A DNA stretch of 64,000 nucleotides, taken from NCBI GenBank assembly GCA_016178725.1, contig JACOSV010000026.1, positions 21,965 to 85,964 of the forward strand, given 5' to 3'. How positions within the stretch are numbered: position 1 is the stretch's first letter; the number at the start of each line of letters is the position of its first letter. Shown piece by piece: positions 8,281 through 16,053 of this stretch. The position numbers and the translations under genes are program-made. The notes beneath the pieces are model-generated. The model ran no database searches. It saw only the letters and a program-made list of their open reading frames with translations, and was not told the origin of the DNA. This DNA comes from Candidatus Eiseniibacteriota bacterium (lineage in GTDB: Bacteria > Eisenbacteria > RBG-16-71-46).

Positions 8281-8341
8281 GGGCGCCCGCGCCAGTCCGC
8301 GCTTGACGCGGCGGCCCCGCGGCCCGCATCATCTCCACGCG

Positions 8342-8434
8342 ATGAACCCAATCCTCATGGCGATGCCGATGTGTTGTTGCCACATGCTCGAGGGGAGCAT
8401 GCGGTATCGGCGCGCTGGGGGACGCAGAGACTAG
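8342..8434 (+). CDS. Candidate Met/Cys-rich leader peptide, 30 codons.
   Basis: ATG AAC CCA ATC CTC ATG GCG ATG CCG ATG TGT TGT TGC CAC ATG CTC GAG GGG AGC ATG ... TAG translates to MNPILMAMPMCCCHMLEGSMRYRRAGGRRD. That is 6 Met and 3 consecutive Cys codons. It lies in the 5' leader of the FMN-reductase/LLM-monooxygenase operon and is followed by a terminator hairpin. The region is AT-richer than its surroundings. Confidence 0.35.
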   Translation: MNPILMAMPMCCCHMLEGSMRYRRAGGRRD

Positions 8435-8469
8435 TCCCGGGGCTCTAAGCCCCGACAGCAGACCGAGAC

Positions 8470-8512
8470 GACCGCGGCTCCCACTCCGGTGGGGGCCGCG
8501 GTCGTTTTCATT
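8470..8512 (+). terminator. Intrinsic terminator/attenuator hairpin immediately upstream of the FMN reductase RBS.
   Basis: GACCGCGGC-tcccactccggtggg-GGCCGCGGTC: a perfect 9-bp outer stem plus a nested CCCAC/GTGGG stem, followed by GTTTTCATTT. GGAGG and the ATG at 8525 come directly after. Confidence 0.45.
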
Positions 8513-8524
8513 TCGGAGGCAAGC

Positions 8525-9130
8525 ATGAGCGTGATCGCACAGCTGTCGTCGTTGCGCGCCATCGGACTCTCGGCGAGTCCCGGCGGCGCGTCGTCCCGGT
8601 CGCATCAACTGCTCGCCGCCGCACTCGCGCGGCTCGGCGAGCTCGGCTTCGCCGGCGCGATCGTCGACCTCGCCGCGTTCCCGGCCGACGCGCTGCTCGG
8701 CCGCGCGCGCGATCGCGCGCTCGACCGCGCGATCGCCGATCTCGCCGCGGCGCAGGTCGTGGTCGTGGCGACGCCGGTCTACCGCGCGTCGTACAGCGGG
8801 CTGCTCAAGGTGTTCCTCGACCAGCTCGACGAGGATGCACTCGCCGGCAAGGTCGCGGTGCCGATCGCCTCGGGCGGCGGACCCGCGCATCTGCTCGCCA
8901 TCGACCACGGGCTCCGCCCGCTGCTCACGAGCCTCGGCGCCACGGTCGTCGCCGCGGGCGTCTACGCGACGCCGGCGGGATTCACGGACGGCGTGCCGGG
9001 CGGGGCACTGCTCGACCGGCTCGACCGCGCGCTCACCGAGGCCGTCACGCTCGCCACCGCGGCGATCACGCGCCGCGATTTCGCGCCGGCCGCGGCGCAC
9101 CGACACGCACCGCTCGCACTGGAAAGGTAG
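8525..9130 (+). CDS. NAD(P)H-dependent FMN reductase (SsuE/MsuE-like).
   Basis: GGAGGCAAGC then ATG. Flavodoxin-like FMN reductase pattern: IGLSASPG...S.S, VVVATPVYRASYSGLLKVFLD. Confidence 0.7.
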   Translation: MSVIAQLSSLRAIGLSASPGGASSRSHQLLAAALARLGELGFAGAIVDLAAFPADALLGRARDRALDRAIADLAAAQVVVVATPVYRASYSGLLKVFLDQLDEDALAGKVAVPIASGGGPAHLLAIDHGLRPLLTSLGATVVAAGVYATPAGFTDGVPGGALLDRLDRALTEAVTLATAAITRRDFAPAAAHRHAPLALER

Positions 9131-9137
9131 GTTCGCC

Positions 9138-10106
9138 GTGCCCGTCCATCCCGATCGTCCGATCGCCATCTACCACGAGCATCCCGACTGGTTCCGCCCG
9201 CTGTTCTCCGAGCTCGAGCGCCGCGGCACGCCGTACGTGCGGCTCGACGCGACCAGCCACCGCTACGACGCCGCGGCGCCGCGCCCGCCGTACGCGCTGG
9301 TCTTCAACCGCATGAGCCCGTCGGCGTGGACGCGCGGCCACGGCCACGGGATCTTCTACACGCTCCAGTACCTCGAGCACCTCGAGCGCCTCGGCGTGCG
9401 CGTCGTCAACGGCGCGCGCGCGTTCCTCACCGAGATCTCGAAGGCGCGCCAGCTCTCGCTGCTCGAGCGGCTCGGGCTGCCGTATCCGCGCGCCCGCGTG
9501 ATCCACGATCCGCGCCACGCCCCGGCGGCGGCGCAGGGGCTGCGCTTCCCGATCGTCGTCAAGCCCAACATCGGCGGCAGCGGTGCCGGCGTGCGCCGCT
9601 TCGACGACGCCGAGGCGCTGCGCGCCGCGGCCGAGGACCGCGTGTGGAGCCTCGGCATCGACGGCACCGGGCTCGTGCAGGAGTTCATCCCCGCCGAGGA
9701 GGGACGGATCGTGCGCGTCGAGGTGCTCGGCGGCCGCTACCTCTACGCGATCCGCGTCTACACGAACGGCGAGAGCTTCGATCTCTGCCCGGCGGACATC
9801 TGCCGCGGCTTGGACGGCGCCGAGCTCGAGCGCAGCGCGTGCCCGGTGGACGCGCCGAAGAACGGCCTGCGCGTCGAGGCGTACGAGCCGCCGGCCGCGA
9901 TCGTCGCCGACGTCGAGCGCATCACCGCCGCGGCCGGGATCGACGTGGGCGGCGTCGAGTACGTCGTGGACGCGCGCGACGGCGGACATCGGTTCTACGA
10001 CGTGAATGCGCTCTCCAACTTCGTCGCCGACTCGCCGCGGGTCGTCGGCTTCGACGCCCATGCACGGCTCGCGGACTGGCTCGAAGCGGAGGCGAGCGCG
10101 TCATGA
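9138..10106 (+). CDS. ATP-grasp domain protein (RimK/glutathione-synthetase-like ligase).
   Basis: GTG start with an upstream GGAAAGG. ATP-grasp core: FPIVVKPNIGGSGAGV...GLVQEFIP...RVEVLGGRYLYAIRV. The stop overlaps the next start as ATGA. Confidence 0.65.
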   Translation: MPVHPDRPIAIYHEHPDWFRPLFSELERRGTPYVRLDATSHRYDAAAPRPPYALVFNRMSPSAWTRGHGHGIFYTLQYLEHLERLGVRVVNGARAFLTEISKARQLSLLERLGLPYPRARVIHDPRHAPAAAQGLRFPIVVKPNIGGSGAGVRRFDDAEALRAAAEDRVWSLGIDGTGLVQEFIPAEEGRIVRVEVLGGRYLYAIRVYTNGESFDLCPADICRGLDGAELERSACPVDAPKNGLRVEAYEPPAAIVADVERITAAAGIDVGGVEYVVDARDGGHRFYDVNALSNFVADSPRVVGFDAHARLADWLEAEASAS

Positions 10107-11212
10107 GATTCGGATACTGGCTACCCGTGTTCGGCGGCTGGCTGCGCAACGTGCCCGACGAGGGCATGGAGGCGAGCTGGGCCTACGTGAGCCGGCTCGC
10201 GCGGAGGAGCGAGGCCATCGGCTTCGATCTCACGCTGGTCGCCGAGCTGAACCTGAACGACATCAAGGGCGTGGACGCGCCGTCGCTCGACGCGTGGTCC
10301 ACGGCCGCGGCGCTCGCGGCCGTGACCGAGCGGCTCGAGATCATGGTCGCCGTGCGGCCGACGTTCCATCCGCCGGCGCTGCTCGCCAAGCAGACCGCGA
10401 GCCTCGACCAGTTGAGCGGCGGGCGCATCACGCTCAACGTAGTCTCGTCGTGGTGGGAGGACGAGGCGCGGCAGTACGGCGTCGAGTTCGACGCTCACGA
10501 TGCGCGCTACGCGCGCACCGCCGAGTGGCTGACGGTGGTCTCGGGCATGTGGAACGAGGCGAAGTTCAGCTTCAGCGGCCGCTACTACAAGGTCGAGGGT
10601 GCGGTGCTCGAGCCCAAGCCGCGCCGCTGGCCGCGGCCGACGCTCTACGCCGGCGGCGAGTCCGAGGCGGCGAAGGAGCTGATCGCGCGCTCGTGCGACG
10701 CGTACCTGATGCACGGCGATTCACCGGAGCGCGTCGCGGCGAAGGTCGCCGACCTCTCGGCGCGGCGCGCGCGCTGGGGGCTGCCGCCGATGCGCTTCGG
10801 CGTCGCGGGCTACGTCGTGTGCCGCGACAACGAGGACGAGGCGCGCGCCGAGGTCGCGCGCATCACGACGCTCAAGCCCGGAGCGCCCGGGTTCGAGAAC
10901 TTCGGCCAGTGGGTCAACGGCACGCAGCTCGAGCAGCGGCTCAAGCTCGAGGACTACTCGGTCTCGAATCGCGGCCTGCGCTCGGGGCTGATCGGCACGC
11001 CGGAGCAGATCGCGGCGCGCGTGCGTGCGTTCGAAGCCGCGGGCGTCGAGCTGCTGCTGCTCCAGTTCAGCCCGCAGGCCGAGGAGATGGAGCGGTTCGC
11101 GGCGGAGGTGATCCCGCTATGCGGTGCGGCGGAGCCGAGCGTGACGCTCGAACCGGCGGGCGAGAGCGCGGCGGCGGCGGAGCGGAACGCAACGGCTGCG
11201 GCGTCGGCCTAG
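10104..11212 (+). CDS. LLM-class flavin-dependent monooxygenase (luciferase-like; SsuD/SfnG-like).
   Basis: MRFGYWLPVFGGW...LTLVAELNLN...RITLNVVSSWWEDEARQYG...YAGGESEAAKELIA. Translationally coupled to the ATP-grasp gene. Confidence 0.8.
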
Positions 11213-11448
11213 GTTTTGTTCCCCGGCTGTTCGTCGCCGTCGCTCGAGTCGTTCGTCACGTCCTCGGCGGGCGTCCAGCCGTCACCCGGCAGCAGGATGT
11301 CGGCGTGTCCGGTCATGCGCTGGATGCGCACCGGATACGTGTCGTTGCCGATCGTGATGTGGTCGTAGCGCCACTGGGTCGGCCACACGAACGCGGCGAA
11401 CGCCGCGATCAGCGCGAGTACCAGCAGCGCCGCGAAGAAACGCGACAC
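11209..11448 (-). CDS. Possible small single-pass membrane protein, ~80 aa, hypothetical.
   Basis: GTG start. Hydrophobic segment FFAALLVLALIAAFAAFVW, then an acidic tail. Lies downstream of the S9 peptidase on the same strand. Its stop overlaps the monooxygenase stop within the palindrome CCTAGG. Alternatively this is a frame artefact. Confidence 0.25.
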   Translation of the reverse strand: MSRFFAALLVLALIAAFAAFVWPTQWRYDHITIGNDTYPVRIQRMTGHADILLPGDGWTPAEDVTNDSSDGDEQPGNKT

Positions 11449-11534: not shown

Positions 11535-13547
11535 CTAGCGGATCCACTTGTCGAACCAGGCGAGCGTGCGCGTCCAGCGATCCCAGAGGTGCCGGTACTC
11601 GCGGTAGCCATGCGGCTCGCGCGGATAGTGGACGAACTCGGTCGGCACGCCGAGTGCCAGCAGCGAGCGGTAGAGCTCCTGCCCCTGCGGGAACGGGACG
11701 CGCACGTCCTGATCGCCGGAGAACACGATCGTCGGCGTCTTGACGCGCGCGACGTAGGTGATGGGCGAGGCGCGCTCCCAGTTCGCGCGCGATTCCCACG
11801 GTCGGCCACTGAAGTCCCACGCGCGGTACTGCTGGATGTCGCTCTGCGCCCAGTGTGCGGCGAGGTCCACCGCGCCGGCGCTCACCATCGCGGCGCGGAA
11901 GCGGTCGGTCTGCGTGATCGCCCACGCCGAGAGATAGCCGCCGTACGAGTGCCCGTACACGCCGAGACGCTTGCCGTCGACGAGGCCGCGCGCGATCAGC
12001 GAATCGAGGCCGCTCGTCACGTCGCGCCAGTCCTGCCCGCCCCAGTCCGCGCGCTGCCGCAGCAGGAACGCGACACCGTAGCCGTCGCTCGAGCGGAAGT
12101 TGGGCATGAAGATCTGATAGCCGTGCGCGGCGTAGAACTGCGGCACCGGCTGGAACGCGTTGGTGAACCGCGAGCCGTACGGACCGCCGTGGAGCAGGAC
12201 CAGCGTCTTGAGCGGCGCGCTCGCCGGGGCGTCGGGCGGCCGCACGAGCAGGCCCTCGACGCGCACGCCGTCGCTGCTCGTCCATTCGACCGCGCGCGTC
12301 GCGGCGAGATGCAGCGCCGCGACGGCGGCGTGAATCGTGGTCACCGGCCGGCCGGGATCGCTCACACGATCGGCGACCACGACCTCGGCGGGATGGAGCG
12401 GATCGGACTGGATCCACGCGACCGCGCCCGACGCGGCGCGCACCGGCGGACCGGCGTCGGCGCCGCGATCGAGCACCGTGCGCACCGCGCCGCCCGCGCG
12501 CGGCACGACCGCGAGCGCCGTGCTCACGCCGTGCGCGTAGTGGAAGTAGAGACTGTCGGAATGGGCACTCCACATCGGCGCGCCGGCGTCGTCGTCGAAC
12601 GCCGCGGTGAGGTTGACCGGCGCCCCGCCCGCCGCCGCGACCACGCGCACGTCGGCCTTCTGGACGAACGCCTTGCGGTCGCCGCCGCCGGAGAGCGCGA
12701 TCCAGCGTCCGTCGGGCGACCACGCGAACGTGCCGTTGCCGATGACGCCGAGCCGACGCATCGCGCCGCCGTCCACGCTCACGATGCCCAGGTCGGTCTG
12801 ATTCTCGTCGTCCGGCTTGCCGCTCGGGCTCGTGAGGAACGCGATCGCGCGCGAGTCGGGCGACCAGCGCGCGTTCCAGATCCACTGCGCGCCGGAGGTG
12901 AGCCGGCGCTTGCGGCCGGTCGCGACCTCGATCACCCAGAGGTGCGGGTACTGGAGCCGCTCGTCCTCGATCGTCTGGTCCCATTTCTTCTTGCGCCAGT
13001 CCTTGATCTGCTTGGACAGCGTGTCGGTCATCACGTACGCGAGGTAGCGGCCGTCGGGTGACCACGCGACCTCGCCGACGCCGTCGTCGTACGTGCCGAA
13101 CGCCCACGGCTCGCCGCCCTCGAGCGACAGCATGTAGATCGCGGGCTTCGCGTCGTCGCCCGCGGCGCGCGTGGCGACGAAGGCGATCGTGTCGCCGCCG
13201 GGCGAGAACGTCGGGCTGAAGTCGTTCTTCGGATGGCGCGTGAGCCGGAGCGCGCGGCGCGTGTCGCGGTCGTAGAACCAGAGGTCATGGTTCTGCGCCG
13301 TCTCGGCGGTGTCGATCGAGGTGACGACGAACGCGAGGTGCCGCCCGTCGCGCGACCACGTGAGGCCCGAGATCGCTTCGAGCGTCAGCGCGTGCTCGAG
13401 CGTGTAGGCGGAAGCGGACGGAATCGCGGCCGGCGACGTGGCGGGGCGCGCGGTGGTGCCGCCGGATGCGGGCGCGGATGCCGACACGCGCGGCGTGGCG
13501 GCGGCGAAGGCGAGGGCGATCAGGATCGCGGGAATGCGCGTCATCGG
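11535..13547 (-). CDS. S9-family serine peptidase (prolyl oligopeptidase/acylaminoacyl-peptidase-like) with an N-terminal TolB-like beta-propeller.
   Basis: Signal peptide MTRIPAILIALAFAAATPRVSAS. Propeller repeats WSPDGR...; catalytic GHSYGGYLSAW (GxSxGG); C-terminal Asp/His region. Confidence 0.8.
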   Translation of the reverse strand, partial: PMTRIPAILIALAFAAATPRVSASAPASGGTTARPATSPAAIPSASAYTLEHALTLEAISGLTWSRDGRHLAFVVTSIDTAETAQNHDLWFYDRDTRRALRLTRHPKNDFSPTFSPGGDTIAFVATRAAGDDAKPAIYMLSLEGGEPWAFGTYDDGVGEVAWSPDGRYLAYVMTDTLSKQIKDWRKKKWDQTIEDERLQYPHLWVIEVATGRKRRLTSGAQWIWNARWSPDSRAIAFLTSPSGKPDDENQTDLGIVSVDGGAMRRLGVIGNGTFAWSPDGRWIALSGGGDRKAFVQKADVRVVAAAGGAPVNLTAAFDDDAGAPMWSAHSDSLYFHYAHGVSTALAVVPRAGGAVRTVLDRGADAGPPVRAASGAVAWIQSDPLHPAEVVVADRVSDPGRPVTTIHAAVAALHLAATRAVEWTSSDGVRVEGLLVRPPDAPASAPLKTLVLLHGGPYGSRFTNAFQPVPQFYAAHGYQIFMPNFRSSDGYGVAFLLRQRADWGGQDWRDVTSGLDSLIARGLVDGKRLGVYGHSYGGYLSAWAITQTDRFRAAMVSAGAVDLAAHWAQSDIQQYRAWDFSGRPWESRANWERASPITYVARVKTPTIVFSGDQDVRVPFPQGQELYRSLLALGVPTEFVHYPREPHGYREYRHLWDRWTRTLAWFDKWIR

Positions 13548-13652
13548 GGCTCCAGGGTGCGGGCGGCGAACGGCGGGTGAGAGTAGCGGTCGCGGTGGCC
13601 CCGGACAATCGCCGGATCCCGGGCGCGAGGGCTCGCCCGGTCCCGGCACGGC

Positions 13653-14192: not shown

Positions 14193-14954
14193 CTACTTCG
14201 GCGGACGGCGGACGCCGAGCCGCTGCATGCGCGAGACGAGCGTCGACGGCTTGAGCCCGAGCGCCGTCGCGGCGCCGCGCGGTCCGCTGATGCGCCCCGC
14301 CGTCTCGATTAGCACGCGTTCGATCGCCTCGCGCTGGATCTCGGCGAGGGTGCGCGTCTCGCGCTCCGCGACCATCTCGGGCGCGGGCCGCGCCGTGCGT
14401 CGCACGCGCACGACCCGCTCGCGCGCCGCCCGCGATGCCGGGCCGGGCGCGGGCAGGCCGACGCCGGGAGGGAGCGCCGCTCGCGCCGCCAGTGCCAGCA
14501 GCCGCAGCTCGTCGTCGTTCAATACGCGGCGCGAGAAGAGGGCGAGGACGCCATGCGCCGACGGGCCGAGCGGCACGGCCGCGAAGCTGCGCACGCCGTG
14601 GAGCGCGAGCCATCCCGGTTCGGCGAGCCCGCGCAGCGCCTGCTCGCCGCGCTCGACGTAGGCGACGCGCTCGCTCGCGACGCGGCCGACGCGGCGCGCG
14701 CCGATCGGAAAGCGGCGGAACGGACCGTCGGTCGCGCGCGACAATCCTTCGCTGACGATCAGATGGAGGCAGCGGCGCCGGTCGGGGCACTCGCCGGCCA
14801 TTGCGCACGTCGCACAGAGATCGCCCGCGGCGATCAGCCAGATGCGGGCGAGGACCGCGTCGCAGGCTTCGAGGGATTCGCGGGCGAGGGCGGAGAGCGC
14901 CTCGCGTATGCCGGGGGCGATGTCCATGCCGGGAACCTCCATCGGCCGGGTCAC
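14193..14954 (-). CDS. Transcriptional regulator: GAF domain plus C-terminal Fis-type HTH.
   Basis: The C-terminal ATALGLKPSTLVSRMQRLGV is typical of Fis/NtrC-family HTH_8. The N-terminal GAF-like region has a Cys cluster (CATCAMAGECPDRRRC). There is no AAA+ domain. The true start may be the internal MDIAPG at ~14927. Confidence 0.55.
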   Translation of the reverse strand: MTRPMEVPGMDIAPGIREALSALARESLEACDAVLARIWLIAAGDLCATCAMAGECPDRRRCLHLIVSEGLSRATDGPFRRFPIGARRVGRVASERVAYVERGEQALRGLAEPGWLALHGVRSFAAVPLGPSAHGVLALFSRRVLNDDELRLLALAARAALPPGVGLPAPGPASRAARERVVRVRRTARPAPEMVAERETRTLAEIQREAIERVLIETAGRISGPRGAATALGLKPSTLVSRMQRLGVRRPPK

Positions 14955-15057
14955 GAGATGTCGGGACCATAGCCCGCGATATGTCGTGAGTCACGAAATA
15001 TCGTGACTTTGGCTGTGGGTCGCGCTTTTGCAACGACTTGAGCCACCGTCCGAGGGT

Positions 15058-16053
15058 ATGCTGCGCGCCGTGCTTTCATTCGCGAACGGAATCCGGATCG
15101 CCTGCATGGACGCCCCGCTCGACCCGCGCAAGCGGTGCGATCGCGCGATCGTCACGCACGCCCACTCCGACCACGTCCGCCGTCACAAGCGCTGGGTGAC
15201 GACGCCGGGGACGGCGCTCCTCTGCGCGCGGCGCTGGAACGCCGCCGACCTCGAGGTGCACGAGTTCCACGCGCCGTGGCGCGAGGGCGAGGCGACGGTG
15301 ACGCTGCTCCCGGCCGGCCACATCCTGGGCTCGGCGATGGTGCTGGTCGAGTCGCGCGGGCTCCGCTTCCTCTACACGGGCGACTTTCGCCTGCGGCCGT
15401 CGGCGACGGCCGAGCCGTGCGAACCGATCGACGCCGACGTGCTGATCACCGAGTGCACGTTCGGCGAGCCGCGCTACCGGTTCCCCGAGCGCGCCGCGGT
15501 CGTGGACGATCTCTGCACGTTCGTCGAAGAGACGCTGGCGCAGGAGGCGGCGCCGATCCTCATCGCCTATTCGCTCGGCAAGGCGCAGGAGGTCGCGCGC
15601 ATCATGGGCGACCTGTGGTATCGCGTCGCGCTCCATCCGCGCGCGTGGGCGATGCTCGAGGCGTATCGCGACCTCGGCGTCGCGTTCACGAACTGCGAGT
15701 GCTACGCGATGGGCCCGCTCGCGCGCGGCGTGCTCATCGTGCCGCCGGGGCCGGGCGGCATGGCGCTCGCGCACCGTTTCCGCCGCCGGCGTACGGCGTT
15801 CCTCTCCGGCTGGGCGCTCGCGCCGCCGGGACGCTTCGGCCGCTACGACGCGGCGTTTCCGATCAGCGACCACGCCGACTGGAGCGAGCTGCTCGAGATG
15901 GTCGAGCGCGTGCGCCCGCGGCGGATCTACACGCTCCACGGCGCCGACACGTTCGCGGCACGGCTGCGGGCGCGCGGATACGACGCGTGGCCGGCGGGCG
16001 CCGATGCCCCGTCCGTGCCGCCGGCCGAGTCGGCGCAGCTCTCGCTGCTCTAG
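15058..16053 (+). CDS. MBL-fold metallo-hydrolase, beta-CASP/ligase-associated exonuclease-like.
   Basis: HAHSDH motif, a downstream D/H (TGDFR...ITECTFGE), C-terminal ISDHADWSEL...YTLHG. ATG at 15058 preceded by CCGAGGGT. Confidence 0.6.
   Translation: MLRAVLSFANGIRIACMDAPLDPRKRCDRAIVTHAHSDHVRRHKRWVTTPGTALLCARRWNAADLEVHEFHAPWREGEATVTLLPAGHILGSAMVLVESRGLRFLYTGDFRLRPSATAEPCEPIDADVLITECTFGEPRYRFPERAAVVDDLCTFVEETLAQEAAPILIAYSLGKAQEVARIMGDLWYRVALHPRAWAMLEAYRDLGVAFTNCECYAMGPLARGVLIVPPGPGGMALAHRFRRRRTAFLSGWALAPPGRFGRYDAAFPISDHADWSELLEMVERVRPRRIYTLHGADTFAARLRARGYDAWPAGADAPSVPPAESAQLSLL

Follow-up and report, generated by a model that had tools for sequence, protein, structure and literature searches.

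The window analysed here, a stretch of 64,000 nucleotides (nt) from Candidatus Eiseniibacteriota bacterium (GenBank assembly GCA_016178725.1, contig JACOSV010000026.1), carries at positions 8525-11212 three consecutive plus-strand genes that encode (i) a flavin mononucleotide (FMN) reductase, (ii) an ATP-grasp ligase, and (iii) a luciferase-like monooxygenase (LLM) of the type dependent on reduced FMN (FMNH2). Promoter, Met/Cys leader peptide, terminator, reductase, ligase and LLM are arranged as one transcription unit (Table 1), rated here as a two-component flavin monooxygenase system of the sulfur-starvation type in which an ATP-grasp enzyme has become an obligate partner and the regulation is unusual. 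Gene calls rely on the analysis of third-position GC content (GC3), the window being ~72% G+C and its raw lists of open reading frames (ORFs) crowded with shadow ORFs; the coding frames of the three genes display GC3 values of 0.88-0.98. The domains PF03358, PF08443 and PF00296 all score above their cutoffs. An earlier note on this DNA had described an ATP-grasp ligase between an SsuE-like reductase and an SsuD-like monooxygenase and had called the genes tightly coupled: the ATGA overlap of the second and third genes is present at 10103-10106, whereas the gap between the first two comprises 7 nt (TAG 9128-9130, GTG 9138-9140) and not the 8 nt first counted. The ligase starts with the GTG at 9138, not at 9139, as backed by homologs beginning MPVHPDRPIAIY. 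The upstream flank comprises a P-type metal ATPase, a 3-keto-disaccharide hydrolase-like protein encoded on the minus strand, and an arginase, all of them functionally unrelated to the trio.

A ligase-monooxygenase pair conserved across phyla

A word-indexed search for the ligase family returned 8000 matches, and an exhaustive search on 50%-identity representatives discloses 320 clusters with E<1e-30. A scan of GTDB with one genome per species, using an 11-sequence ligase alignment as the query, finds relatives in at least 594 species, of which the best 80 loci were surveyed (79 informative for the LLM and 75 for the reductase). These loci belong to Gemmatimonadota, Acidobacteriota, Planctomycetota, Verrucomicrobiota, Armatimonadota, Methylomirabilota, Ca. 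Eisenbacteria and Chloroflexota, together with one Rhodanobacteraceae genome. An LLM ortholog (56-84% identity) lies no more than 250 nt 3' of the ligase gene and on the same strand in 68 of the 79 informative species loci, with a median gap of 13 nt, and five further loci place the LLM 0.5-3.3 kb from the ligase. All-against-all clustering of the ORFs of 85 loci reveals no conserved neighbour beyond the pair, the reductase and shadow ORFs; an ATP-binding cassette (ABC) ATPase found in 11 loci and mixed PD40/S9 proteins were considered as conserved partners and rejected as lineage synteny or promiscuous repeats. The conserved unit is a two-gene ligase-LLM cassette that moves among unrelated neighbourhoods. 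An exact-sequence lookup of the window ligase returned no matching record.

The full trio, with the whole local synteny, is preserved in the closest relatives of the window, L095, a metagenome-assembled genome (MAG) of Ca. Eisenbacteria with an 89% identical ligase, and L096, with a 93% identical ligase; the trio is also present in L001. The earlier note had suggested a neighbourhood survey for recurrence, and recurrence is what these three loci display for the trio and the 68 loci for the pair. On the other hand, the trio is not the conserved unit, the reductase being located 5' of the ligase in 13 of the 75 informative GTDB loci, all of them Gemmatimonadales/-etes MAGs, and additionally in L001, L095 and L096. 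It is thus outside the conserved core, as an optional accessory gene that certain lineages add to the cassette. In L004, reductase and ligase are fused into a single FMN_red::ATP-grasp protein of 549 residues (P0040).

Outside the surveyed loci, the pairing is found in other arrangements. Bacillaceae display the reversed order, with the LLM (57% identity to that of the window) first and the ligase homolog (31-34%) second, in an isolated two-gene operon. Two Deinococcus megaplasmids encode an LLM ortholog (59-60% identity) 3' of a 426-residue ATP-grasp 'carboxylate-amine ligase', an unclassified family with no detectable sequence relationship to the window ligase. In addition, a plasmid of the haloarchaeon Natrononativus amylolyticus (L094 7001-9675) carries a homolog of the Deinococcus-type ligase (35% identity) followed by an LLM of the NtaA/DmoA family (541 bits). 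ATP-grasp ligases are thus paired with class C LLMs more widely, outside the clade of the window LLM and in Archaea as well. The preservation of the pairing in Deinococcus, where one partner has been non-orthologously replaced, is strong evidence that ligation and oxygenation belong to one pathway.

The functional tie between ATP-grasp enzyme and monooxygenase that the earlier note had suggested is borne out by adjacency in more than seven phyla, by the fusion of an FMN reductase to the ligase, and by the occurrence of an unrelated ligase in the same place in Deinococcus. A juxtaposition by chance of three genes with unrelated functions would agree with the flanking arginase, 3-keto-disaccharide hydrolase and S9 peptidase, which have no functional relation to the trio; nevertheless, the genes are translationally coupled, the pair stays adjacent in many phyla amid otherwise variable neighbourhoods, the closest relatives preserve the trio in the same synteny, and a fusion protein exists, so that the survey refutes this explanation and leaves it with practically no probability.

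Architecture of the ligase, the monooxygenase and the reductase

The ligase matches the RimK-like ATP-grasp model PF08443 (33.5 bits against a cutoff of 21), whereas it falls below the cutoffs of its two best sequence models, the RimK family TIGR00768 (79.9 against 143.4 bits) and LysX TIGR02144 (63.9 against 275.6 bits). An AlphaFold2 model built from 35 diverse homologs reaches a mean predicted local distance difference test (pLDDT) score of 88.4 and is confident except for residues 218-241. The comparison of this model with the PDB by Foldseek places ArgX (3vpb, TM-score 0.75) and LysX first, with TM-scores of 0.70-0.76, followed by the graspetide ligase PsnB, RimK and D-Ala-D-Ala ligases (Ddl), the probability being 1.00 for ArgX, LysX, RimK and Ddl. 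Residues K142, Q181/E182, R193, E274, D288 and N290 are conserved in the 35 homologs, and among them K142, Q181/E182, E274, D288 and N290 are the putative ATP- and Mg-binding residues; because these are conserved, the ligase is probably catalytically active. The enzyme thus resembles the alpha-L-glutamate and amino-group-carrier ligases RimK, LysX/ArgX, MptN and CofF in its fold and in its nucleotide and Mg residues, and differs from them in that (i) all family cutoffs are missed, (ii) no conserved gene for a carrier or target protein of the LysW or S6 type is found near the ligase among the 85 clustered loci, and (iii) it has a unique cysteine-bearing insert and an invariant NRxSxSA motif. 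The insert (residues 218-241, window 9789-9860) is flexible, with pLDDT <50, is missing from RimK, LysX and ArgX, and is associated with the conserved cysteines C217 and C222 in FNLCPADxC (motif CPADxC...C) and C235; it could form a metal site or a redox-sensitive lid.

Two further observations concern the ligase family. A 54-residue ORF located 5' in L002 and L003, considered as a LysW-like carrier, was rejected, lacking a zinc ribbon and an acidic C-terminus and not being conserved. P0220, a 567-residue ligase homolog with 38% identity, displays an N-terminal domain resembling FGE-sulfatase and sulfoxide synthases (PF03781, E = 5.5e-9, partial match), a domain type whose substrates in FGE, EgtB and OvoA are Cys or thiols.

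The LLM matches PF00296 (Bac_luciferase) with 212.4 bits against a cutoff of 27.9 over residues 1-316, and misses the equivalog cutoffs of SfnG (TIGR04021, 253 against 382.95 bits) and SsuD (TIGR03565, 169.3 against 518.2 bits). Among structures, the highest score is obtained with PDB 3RAO, a B. cereus LLM from structural genomics without assigned function (432 bits over residues 2-343), followed by 8VW6, deposited as an alkanesulfonate monooxygenase (369 bits), SfnG (8T0U, 189 bits), MsuD (7JV3, 139 bits) and SsuD (1M41, 127 bits). The window LLM has orthologs, or nearly so, in both 3RAO and 8VW6: the former preserves the AELNLNDIKG and SVSNRGLR motifs, and 8VW6 carries the variants PELYLNDRKG and SVGTRGLR. 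In a plasmid collection, the LLM identity drops from 57-60% to at most 37%, the lower group including annotated SfnG, and the top three matches (two from Deinococcus, one from Bacillus) each directly adjoin an ATP-grasp gene. According to these profile and structure scores, the identity gap and the signature residues described below, the window LLM is predicted to be neither SsuD nor SfnG, and to belong to a separate, uncharacterised clade to which SfnG stands closest, here called the 3RAO clade. The description of the monooxygenase as SsuD-like is thus not retained; the accompanying claim that the operon is not a canonical ssu or sfn operon stands. The names that databases give to the orthologs are either generic or carried over from homologs ('LLM class flavin-dependent oxidoreductase', 'dimethylsulfone monooxygenase', 'alkanesulfonate monooxygenase', 'alpha-L-glutamate ligase', 'hypothetical protein'; JGI, UniRef). 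We found no reported function for 3RAO or 8VW6 in the literature and no paper mentioning 8VW6, the sole use of 3RAO that we found being as a molecular-replacement model for SfnG.

SfnG/MsuE of Pseudomonas (8T0U; PMC11588060) is the nearest characterised relative and, like the window system, comprises a class C, two-component, FMNH2-dependent LLM; it is sulfur-starvation-induced and C-S-cleaving. In SfnG, dimethylsulfone is bound by R55, W121, N297, Q53 and an aromatic cage of W11, Y60, F267, W285 and Y296, whereas H136, Y140 and S188/S189 contact the FMN phosphate and N116 is the Asn of the O2 site (PMC11588060). At an identity in the mid-30s per cent, the two enzymes have in common W11, N116, W121, H136, Y140, F267 and N297 (SfnG numbering). 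As mapped by pairwise alignments at ~30% identity, the window LLM keeps (i) the O2-site N112 and the FMN-phosphate residues H132, Y136 and S187, all four invariant in 77 orthologs, with E186 replacing one FMN-phosphate Ser of SfnG, and (ii) W6, the Phe aligned to SfnG F267, and, of the three residues that donate hydrogen bonds to the sulfonyl group, W117 and N289. On the other hand, the aromatic cage for neutral dialkyl sulfones is lost, with Q53 replaced by E48, R55 by N50, Y60 by K55 and Y296 by S288, and with the N284/W285 segment deleted. E48, N52, D53, K55, W117/W118 and the segment Y285-S-V-S-N-R290 are invariant in the 77 orthologs, which represent all sampled phyla. The pocket would thus still fit an S-oxygenated group, and the site that holds the methyl groups in SfnG would instead be lined with charged side chains, suited to a substrate of which one portion is amino-acid-like or carries some other charge. 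No ATP-grasp enzyme accompanies SfnG.

The reductase matches PF03358 with 87.1 bits against a cutoff of 24. Its best NCBIfam model is SsuE (TIGR03567, 136.5 bits, under the cutoff of 164.05), and the MsuE model gives 102 bits against a cutoff of 212.5; by these scores the enzyme is best described as SsuE/MsuE-like, and not as a certified SsuE ortholog. The combination of reductase and LLM, with a role in sulfur starvation, is also the architecture of E. coli ssuEADCB and of MsuD. Ssu is controlled by Cbl/CysB, whereas the window cassette carries a putative attenuator and its orthologs riboswitches, and no ssuABC-type transporter is found in the cassette or conserved among the 85 clustered loci.

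Leader peptides and riboswitches upstream of the cassette

A transcript from the promoter-like site would start just 5' of the leader ATG and be nearly leaderless. The leader peptide, which begins MNPILMAMPMCCCHM, is rich in Met and Cys, comprising six Met and three consecutive Cys codons (8372-8380), and its gene is the sole intergenic Cys/Met-rich small ORF of the window. The 277-nt leader folds with z = -5.9, the hairpin contributing ~-42 kcal/mol, and a candidate antiterminator pairs 8388-8415 with 8465-8492 at -27.7 kcal/mol. Comparison with the orthologous loci leads us to propose that this leader has the anatomy of a classical leader-peptide attenuator, reading the supply of Met-tRNA and Cys-tRNA.

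Leader ORFs with at least five Cys plus Met in a 10-codon stretch are present in 39 of 81 orthologous upstream regions, a set without the Bacillaceae and Deinococcus loci, whereas dinucleotide shuffles average 0.1 (at most 3) and the reverse complement gives two. Strict terminator-like hairpins 10-160 nt 5' of the first gene are present in 38 of the 81 loci, where shuffles average 1.5, and 31 loci display leader ORF and terminator in the expected order. The loci with Met/Cys leaders comprise L001, L004-L008, L011, L012, L016, L017, L020-L032, L035, L036, L040, L041, L043, L045, L046, L050, L052-L054, L058, L064, L069, L076, L077, L079, L081 and L083. Their peptides, exemplified by MAMCMCMCCCARER, MAMAMCCCMCCCTGERP and NMAMCMCCCMCMCQSERP, interleave Met and Cys (e.g., MAMCMCMCCC), frequently end in tails of the form ...RML.GS... 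or ...ERP.L.N.S, and otherwise vary in length and sequence. From these sequences, a family of Met/Cys-sensing attenuators looks to be distributed in Acidobacteriota, Gemmatimonadota, Chloroflexota, Methylomirabilota and Eisenbacteria.

Cys-codon leaders described previously include (i) the polycysteine leaderless small ORFs of mycobacteria, which act on translation by sequestering the Shine-Dalgarno site (bioRxiv 10.1101/834739), (ii) uORFC-8-2, located 5' of cysS in Rhodobacterales (PMC8632094), and (iii) predicted attenuators with Cys-codon leaders in actinobacteria (PMC1262725). Like the window leader, they consist of a short upstream ORF with consecutive Cys codons followed by sulfur or cysteine genes; in these precedents ribosome stalling exerts the control, and the mycobacterial ORFs are leaderless where that of the window is seemingly near-leaderless. 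The window leader differs in its interleaved Met and Cys, in its intrinsic terminator platform, in its ligase-LLM target and in the phyla concerned. We found no published description of interleaved Met/Cys leaders with terminators in these phyla; with this family, attenuation by Cys codons would also cover Met/Cys leaders, in Acidobacteriota and Gemmatimonadota.

At other loci, the position upstream of the pair is occupied by S-adenosylmethionine (SAM) riboswitches (Table 1). SAM-I elements precede the pair in Bacillaceae, including a related Bacillus in which the riboswitch is followed by the 3RAO-type ortholog and then the ATP-grasp homolog, and one precedes the alternative ligase in D. peraridilitoris; no riboswitch is found 5' of CuyA in the corresponding D. 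deserti operon. In the three Gemmatimonadota loci with a SAM-II aptamer, a leader ORF rich in Cys and a hairpin resembling a terminator come next 3' of it, and the two sensors appear to act in series. In the window, no Rfam element reaches the gathering threshold, and the segment 8230-8540 yields only sub-threshold noise at E up to 10. The cassette is thus predicted to be controlled by sensors of sulfur-amino-acid status of three independent kinds (SAM-I, SAM-II and the Met/Cys leader peptides), in support of the link to sulfur metabolism made in the earlier note, and this regulation is the main clue to the function of the cassette.

Table 1. Features of the window and riboswitches at orthologous loci (positions refer to the window unless a locus is named).
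Feature	Position	Strand	Basis or score
Promoter-like site: TTGACG, 18-nt spacer, CATCAT	8303-8332	+	Consensus match only; 1 found vs 0.0 expected in shuffles
Leader peptide ORF, 30 codons, MNPILMAMPMCCCHMLEGSMRYRRAGGRRD	8342-8434	+	ORF list, comparative
Terminator of the proposed attenuator: 20-bp G+C-rich hairpin (8465-8508) into T-run TTTTCATTT	8465-8513	+	Sequence, folding
GGAGG ribosome-binding site of the reductase gene, directly after the terminator	8515-8519	+	
FMN reductase, NAD(P)H-dependent, SsuE/MsuE-like, 201 residues	8525-9130	+	PF03358 FMN_red
ATP-grasp carboxylate-amine ligase, RimK/LysX structural type, 322 residues, GTG start	9138-10106	+	PF08443
LLM, class C, FMNH2-dependent, 3RAO clade, 369 residues	10103-11212	+	PF00296
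Weak terminator-like hairpin over the LLM stop codon; operon end marker	11194-11219	+	Sequence scan
S9 peptidase, next gene downstream	11535-13649	-	Profile search
SAM-I riboswitch 5' of the pair, Bacillus sp. N5-665			Rfam, 100.5 bits
SAM-I riboswitch 5' of the pair, B. infantis			Rfam, 93.4 bits
SAM-I riboswitch 5' of the pair, Virgibacillus necropolis	L092 6825-6932		Rfam, 87.4 bits
SAM-I riboswitches, coordinates at the other Bacillaceae loci	L088 7813-7918; L091 6813-6919		
SAM-I riboswitch 5' of the alternative (426-residue) ligase, D. peraridilitoris	L090 5369-5492		Rfam, 60.6 bits
SAM-II riboswitches, three Gemmatimonadota loci	L006 6663-6738; L008 3632-3703; L049 1819-1894		45, 44.1 and 38.9 bits

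Proposed function and its alternatives

Several neighbourhoods provide hints to the substrate. An operon on plasmid 3 of D. deserti (L089 3876-8023) comprises CuyA, CuyB, the 426-residue ligase and the LLM ortholog, with a gene of the cysteine synthase family nearby; its CuyA scores 535 bits as D-cysteate sulfo-lyase (cutoff 450) and its CuyB 271 bits as cysteate racemase (cutoff 190). In D. peraridilitoris (L090 5701-9211), the gene after ligase and LLM encodes an NAD(P)-dependent oxidoreductase. In Spirosoma, two APC amino-acid permeases (BcaP-like) separate the ligase from an LLM two genes downstream of it. Plasmids of Pediococcus carry a DAACS acidic-amino-acid symporter and a thioredoxin-domain gene directly 5' of the ligase homolog, and the DAACS transporter family also adjoins CuyA in Bilophila. 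In Parageobacillus, the pair abuts an ssu-like cluster. A TetR regulator and an aldo/keto reductase are inserted between ligase and LLM in a Verrucomicrobia MAG (L047 8676-10291) and a Granulicella MAG (L068 6820-8435), and an aldo/keto reductase abuts the lone ligase of L041 (8362-9429); the oxidoreductase and aldo/keto reductases may handle an aldehyde product, or their presence may be a coincidence. The earlier note had proposed a non-standard pathway acting on an amino-acid- or peptide-like substrate, of which the non-standard character is retained and the amino-acid-like substrate is probable, being hinted at by the Spirosoma permeases, CuyA and CuyB of D. deserti, and the charged pocket of the LLM. 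A separate observation concerns Virgibacillus necropolis (L092 9117-11254), where genes for a SelD-like selenophosphate synthetase (AIRS domains) and a tRNA 2-selenouridine synthase-like protein (rhodanese and SelU) are located directly 3' of the LLM-ligase pair on the same strand.

The explanation that we favour, to which we assign a probability of about 0.5, is an operon responding to starvation for sulfur amino acids that would cleave the C-S bond of an amino-acid-like organosulfur substrate, with an ATP-dependent step of ligation or activation; the cassette is probably an undescribed route for the recovery of sulfur from an amino-acid-like compound. Under this proposal, scarcity of charged Met-tRNA or Cys-tRNA would stall the ribosome in the MAMPMCCCHM stretch of the leader peptide, the leader would refold, the terminator at 8465-8513 would not form, and the operon would be transcribed. 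The SsuE-like reductase would supply FMNH2, a task that a housekeeping reductase must perform in most other species. The LLM, with FMNH2 and O2, would attack a sulfonyl-type compound (sulfone, sulfonate or sulfinate) bearing a charged amino-acid-like moiety, and C-S cleavage would release sulfite or a sulfinate feeding Cys and Met synthesis. The ATP-grasp enzyme would perform an ATP-dependent ligation or activation of the same substrate or of its product, and its likeliest role may be to mask an amine or a carboxylate within a peptide-like conjugate and so make the substrate acceptable to the oxygenase.

Such an order, masking before cleavage, is the most economical guess in view of two precedents: SsuD accepts N-substituted taurines and not taurine, and Bacillus N-acetylates S-alkylcysteines before cleavage by the LLMs CmoO and CmoJ. 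The salvage of S-alkylcysteine and S-(2-succino)cysteine in B. subtilis comprises the N-acetyltransferases SnaA and SnaB and the LLMs CmoO, CmoJ and YxeK, and it rises under sulfur limitation. The logic of Sna and Cmo is that of the present proposal, the amine being masked first and the LLM then cleaving or oxidising at the sulfur; on the other hand, B. subtilis relies on acetyl-CoA-dependent masking, a dedicated deacetylase and an NtaA/DmoA-type LLM, whereas the window would employ ATP-grasp ligation and an LLM of the 3RAO clade, and encodes no hydrolase. CmoJ and YxeK are cited as class C enzymes (PMC11588060).

Several points weigh against this explanation. The cassette includes neither a transporter nor a hydrolase for the removal of a conjugated group, and without the latter a sequence of ligation, cleavage and deconjugation is incomplete as encoded. 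Equilibrium folding with a stalled-ribosome mask on the leader still yields the terminator, and no antiterminated structure. Six of the 79 loci have no LLM in the flank, where an insertion sequence element or unrelated genes are found near the ligase and no substitute oxygenase, and plasmid homologs in Pediococcus and B. mycoides are likewise ligases without a nearby LLM. The mapping of residues between the LLM and SfnG or SsuD relies on alignments at the low identity given above. In that mapping, of the catalytic and substrate residues of SsuD (Cys54, Arg226, His228 and Arg297, E. coli numbering), C54 is replaced by S61, R226 by Ala and H228 by Tyr, and R297 aligns to N289, beside the invariant R290; lacking C54 and the Arg226/His228 pair, the LLM would bind a sulfonate differently from the SsuD model. 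Finally, SAM riboswitches report methionine/SAM status, the sulfonate genes of Bacillus being normally under CymR, and a methionine-specific role is a live alternative because these riboswitches do not read general sulfur status.

This methionine-specific alternative is the main rival, if an unlikely one: the salvage of oxidised methionine, such as methionine sulfone, in which the LLM would cleave the sulfone to formaldehyde and homocysteine sulfinate, or to methanesulfinate and aspartate semialdehyde, and the ligase would then convert the glutamate-like sulfinate into a phosphoryl ester, in the manner of sulfiredoxin, and so activate it for reduction by thiols to homocysteine and thence methionine. 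In three phyla the pair is under SAM-I or SAM-II riboswitches, sensors of methionine status, and the leaders feature Met codons no less prominently than Cys codons. SfnG, the nearest characterised relative, cleaves dialkyl sulfones, two sulfonyl-binding residues are kept, and the aromatic cage that binds the methyl groups has given way to charged residues that could accommodate the zwitterion of an amino acid. In addition, the Spirosoma permeases are of the branched-chain type (BcaP-like) with a weak match to a methionine/branched-chain transporter model, a thioredoxin-domain gene lies near the Pediococcus ligase homolog, and RimK-type ligases act on glutamate-like acids. Nevertheless, this salvage is entirely inferential, the activation of a sulfinate by an ATP-grasp enzyme has no known precedent, no reductant partner is conserved among the 85 clustered loci, and the Cys codons of the leaders together with CuyA and CuyB of D. 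deserti point to general sulfur supply or to cysteine-derived compounds. A version including cysteine, which would turn irreversibly oxidised sulfur amino acids back into usable ones and in which a sulfone amino acid (methionine sulfone or S-methylcysteine sulfone) would be dealkylated by the LLM to homocysteine or cysteine sulfinate, phosphorylated as a glutamate- or aspartate-like sulfinate by the ATP-grasp enzyme, and reduced by thiols to homocysteine or cysteine, is improbable. Sulfinate activation, if true, would constitute a small-molecule counterpart of sulfiredoxin and a new type of ATP-grasp reaction, under an undescribed Met/Cys attenuator control.

Ordinary scavenging of alkanesulfonates (SsuED-type) or dimethylsulfone (SfnG/MsuE-type), with an ATP-grasp gene of separate function that is merely co-transcribed, is rather unlikely. 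SsuE, SfnG and SsuD are indeed the best NCBIfam models, JGI and UniRef name orthologs 'dimethylsulfone monooxygenase' or 'alkanesulfonate monooxygenase', and the regulation fits sulfur starvation; however, the equivalog cutoffs are all missed (SfnG 253/383, SsuD 169/518, SsuE 136.5/164), neither the aromatic cage of SfnG nor R226, H228 and C54 of SsuD are kept, and no ssuABC-type transporter is present. The plasmid collection separates orthologs that adjoin an ATP-grasp gene or lie a few genes away from one (57-60% identity) from the rest (at most 37%), and cross-phylum adjacency, non-orthologous replacement of the ligase and the fusion place the ligase in the same pathway. Biosynthesis of a small peptide-like metabolite, or of a ribosomally synthesised and post-translationally modified peptide (RiPP) whose precursor would be the Cys/Met small ORF and whose modifying enzymes would be the ATP-grasp ligase and the LLM, is very improbable. 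LysX/ArgX, RimK and PsnB, to which the ligase is structurally close, have proteins or peptides as substrates, a short Cys/Met-rich ORF lies 5' of the genes in 39 of the 81 regions, and both ATP-grasp enzymes and LLMs occur in RiPP clusters in the literature. Against a precursor, 31 loci have an intrinsic terminator between the small ORF and the enzyme genes, a SAM-I riboswitch takes the same upstream position in Bacillaceae and Deinococcus, and the three Gemmatimonadota loci with an upstream SAM-II each carry a Cys-rich leader ORF as well. Beyond the Cys/Met run and the frequent ...RML.G... or ...ERP... tail, both the length and the sequence of the peptides are variable, and no protease, exporter or immunity gene is conserved among the 85 clustered loci. 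Graspetide ligases join Asp or Glu with Ser, Thr or Lys residues, and the leader peptides lack the Asp/Glu and Ser/Thr/Lys residues so required. Making a sulfur-rich product during a shortage of Met and Cys would also be paradoxical. Synthesis of a small N-acylated metabolite, an option raised in the earlier note, is likewise less likely than sulfur recovery, given the control by sulfur-amino-acid starvation.

Two-component flavin monooxygenases are the main aerobic bacterial route by which sulfur is freed from organosulfur compounds, and to our knowledge the Ssu, Msu, Sfn, Dsz, Cmo and Smo systems include no ATP-grasp partner. We found no paper that links ATP-grasp enzymes, LLM/SsuD, FMN reductase, and SAM riboswitches or the S-box, and none on the ligase-LLM pair. 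The cassette is distributed in at least several hundred species, many from poorly cultured soil phyla, and also in the Bacillus cereus group and other Bacillaceae; this spread, the 56-84% identity of the LLM across phyla and the three sensors together suggest a significant piece of methionine, cysteine or sulfur metabolism. The cassette also gives a functional context to the orphan structure 3RAO, with Bacillus and Deinococcus as tractable hosts.

Elsewhere in the window and unrelated to the cassette, a regulator with GAF and Fis-type helix-turn-helix domains adjoins a gene matching TIGR04122, the ligase-associated DNA damage response exonuclease, with 213 bits against a cutoff of 325 (14193-14954 on the minus strand and 15028-16053 on the plus strand), followed by long high-GC3 ORFs at ~16-18.4 kb.

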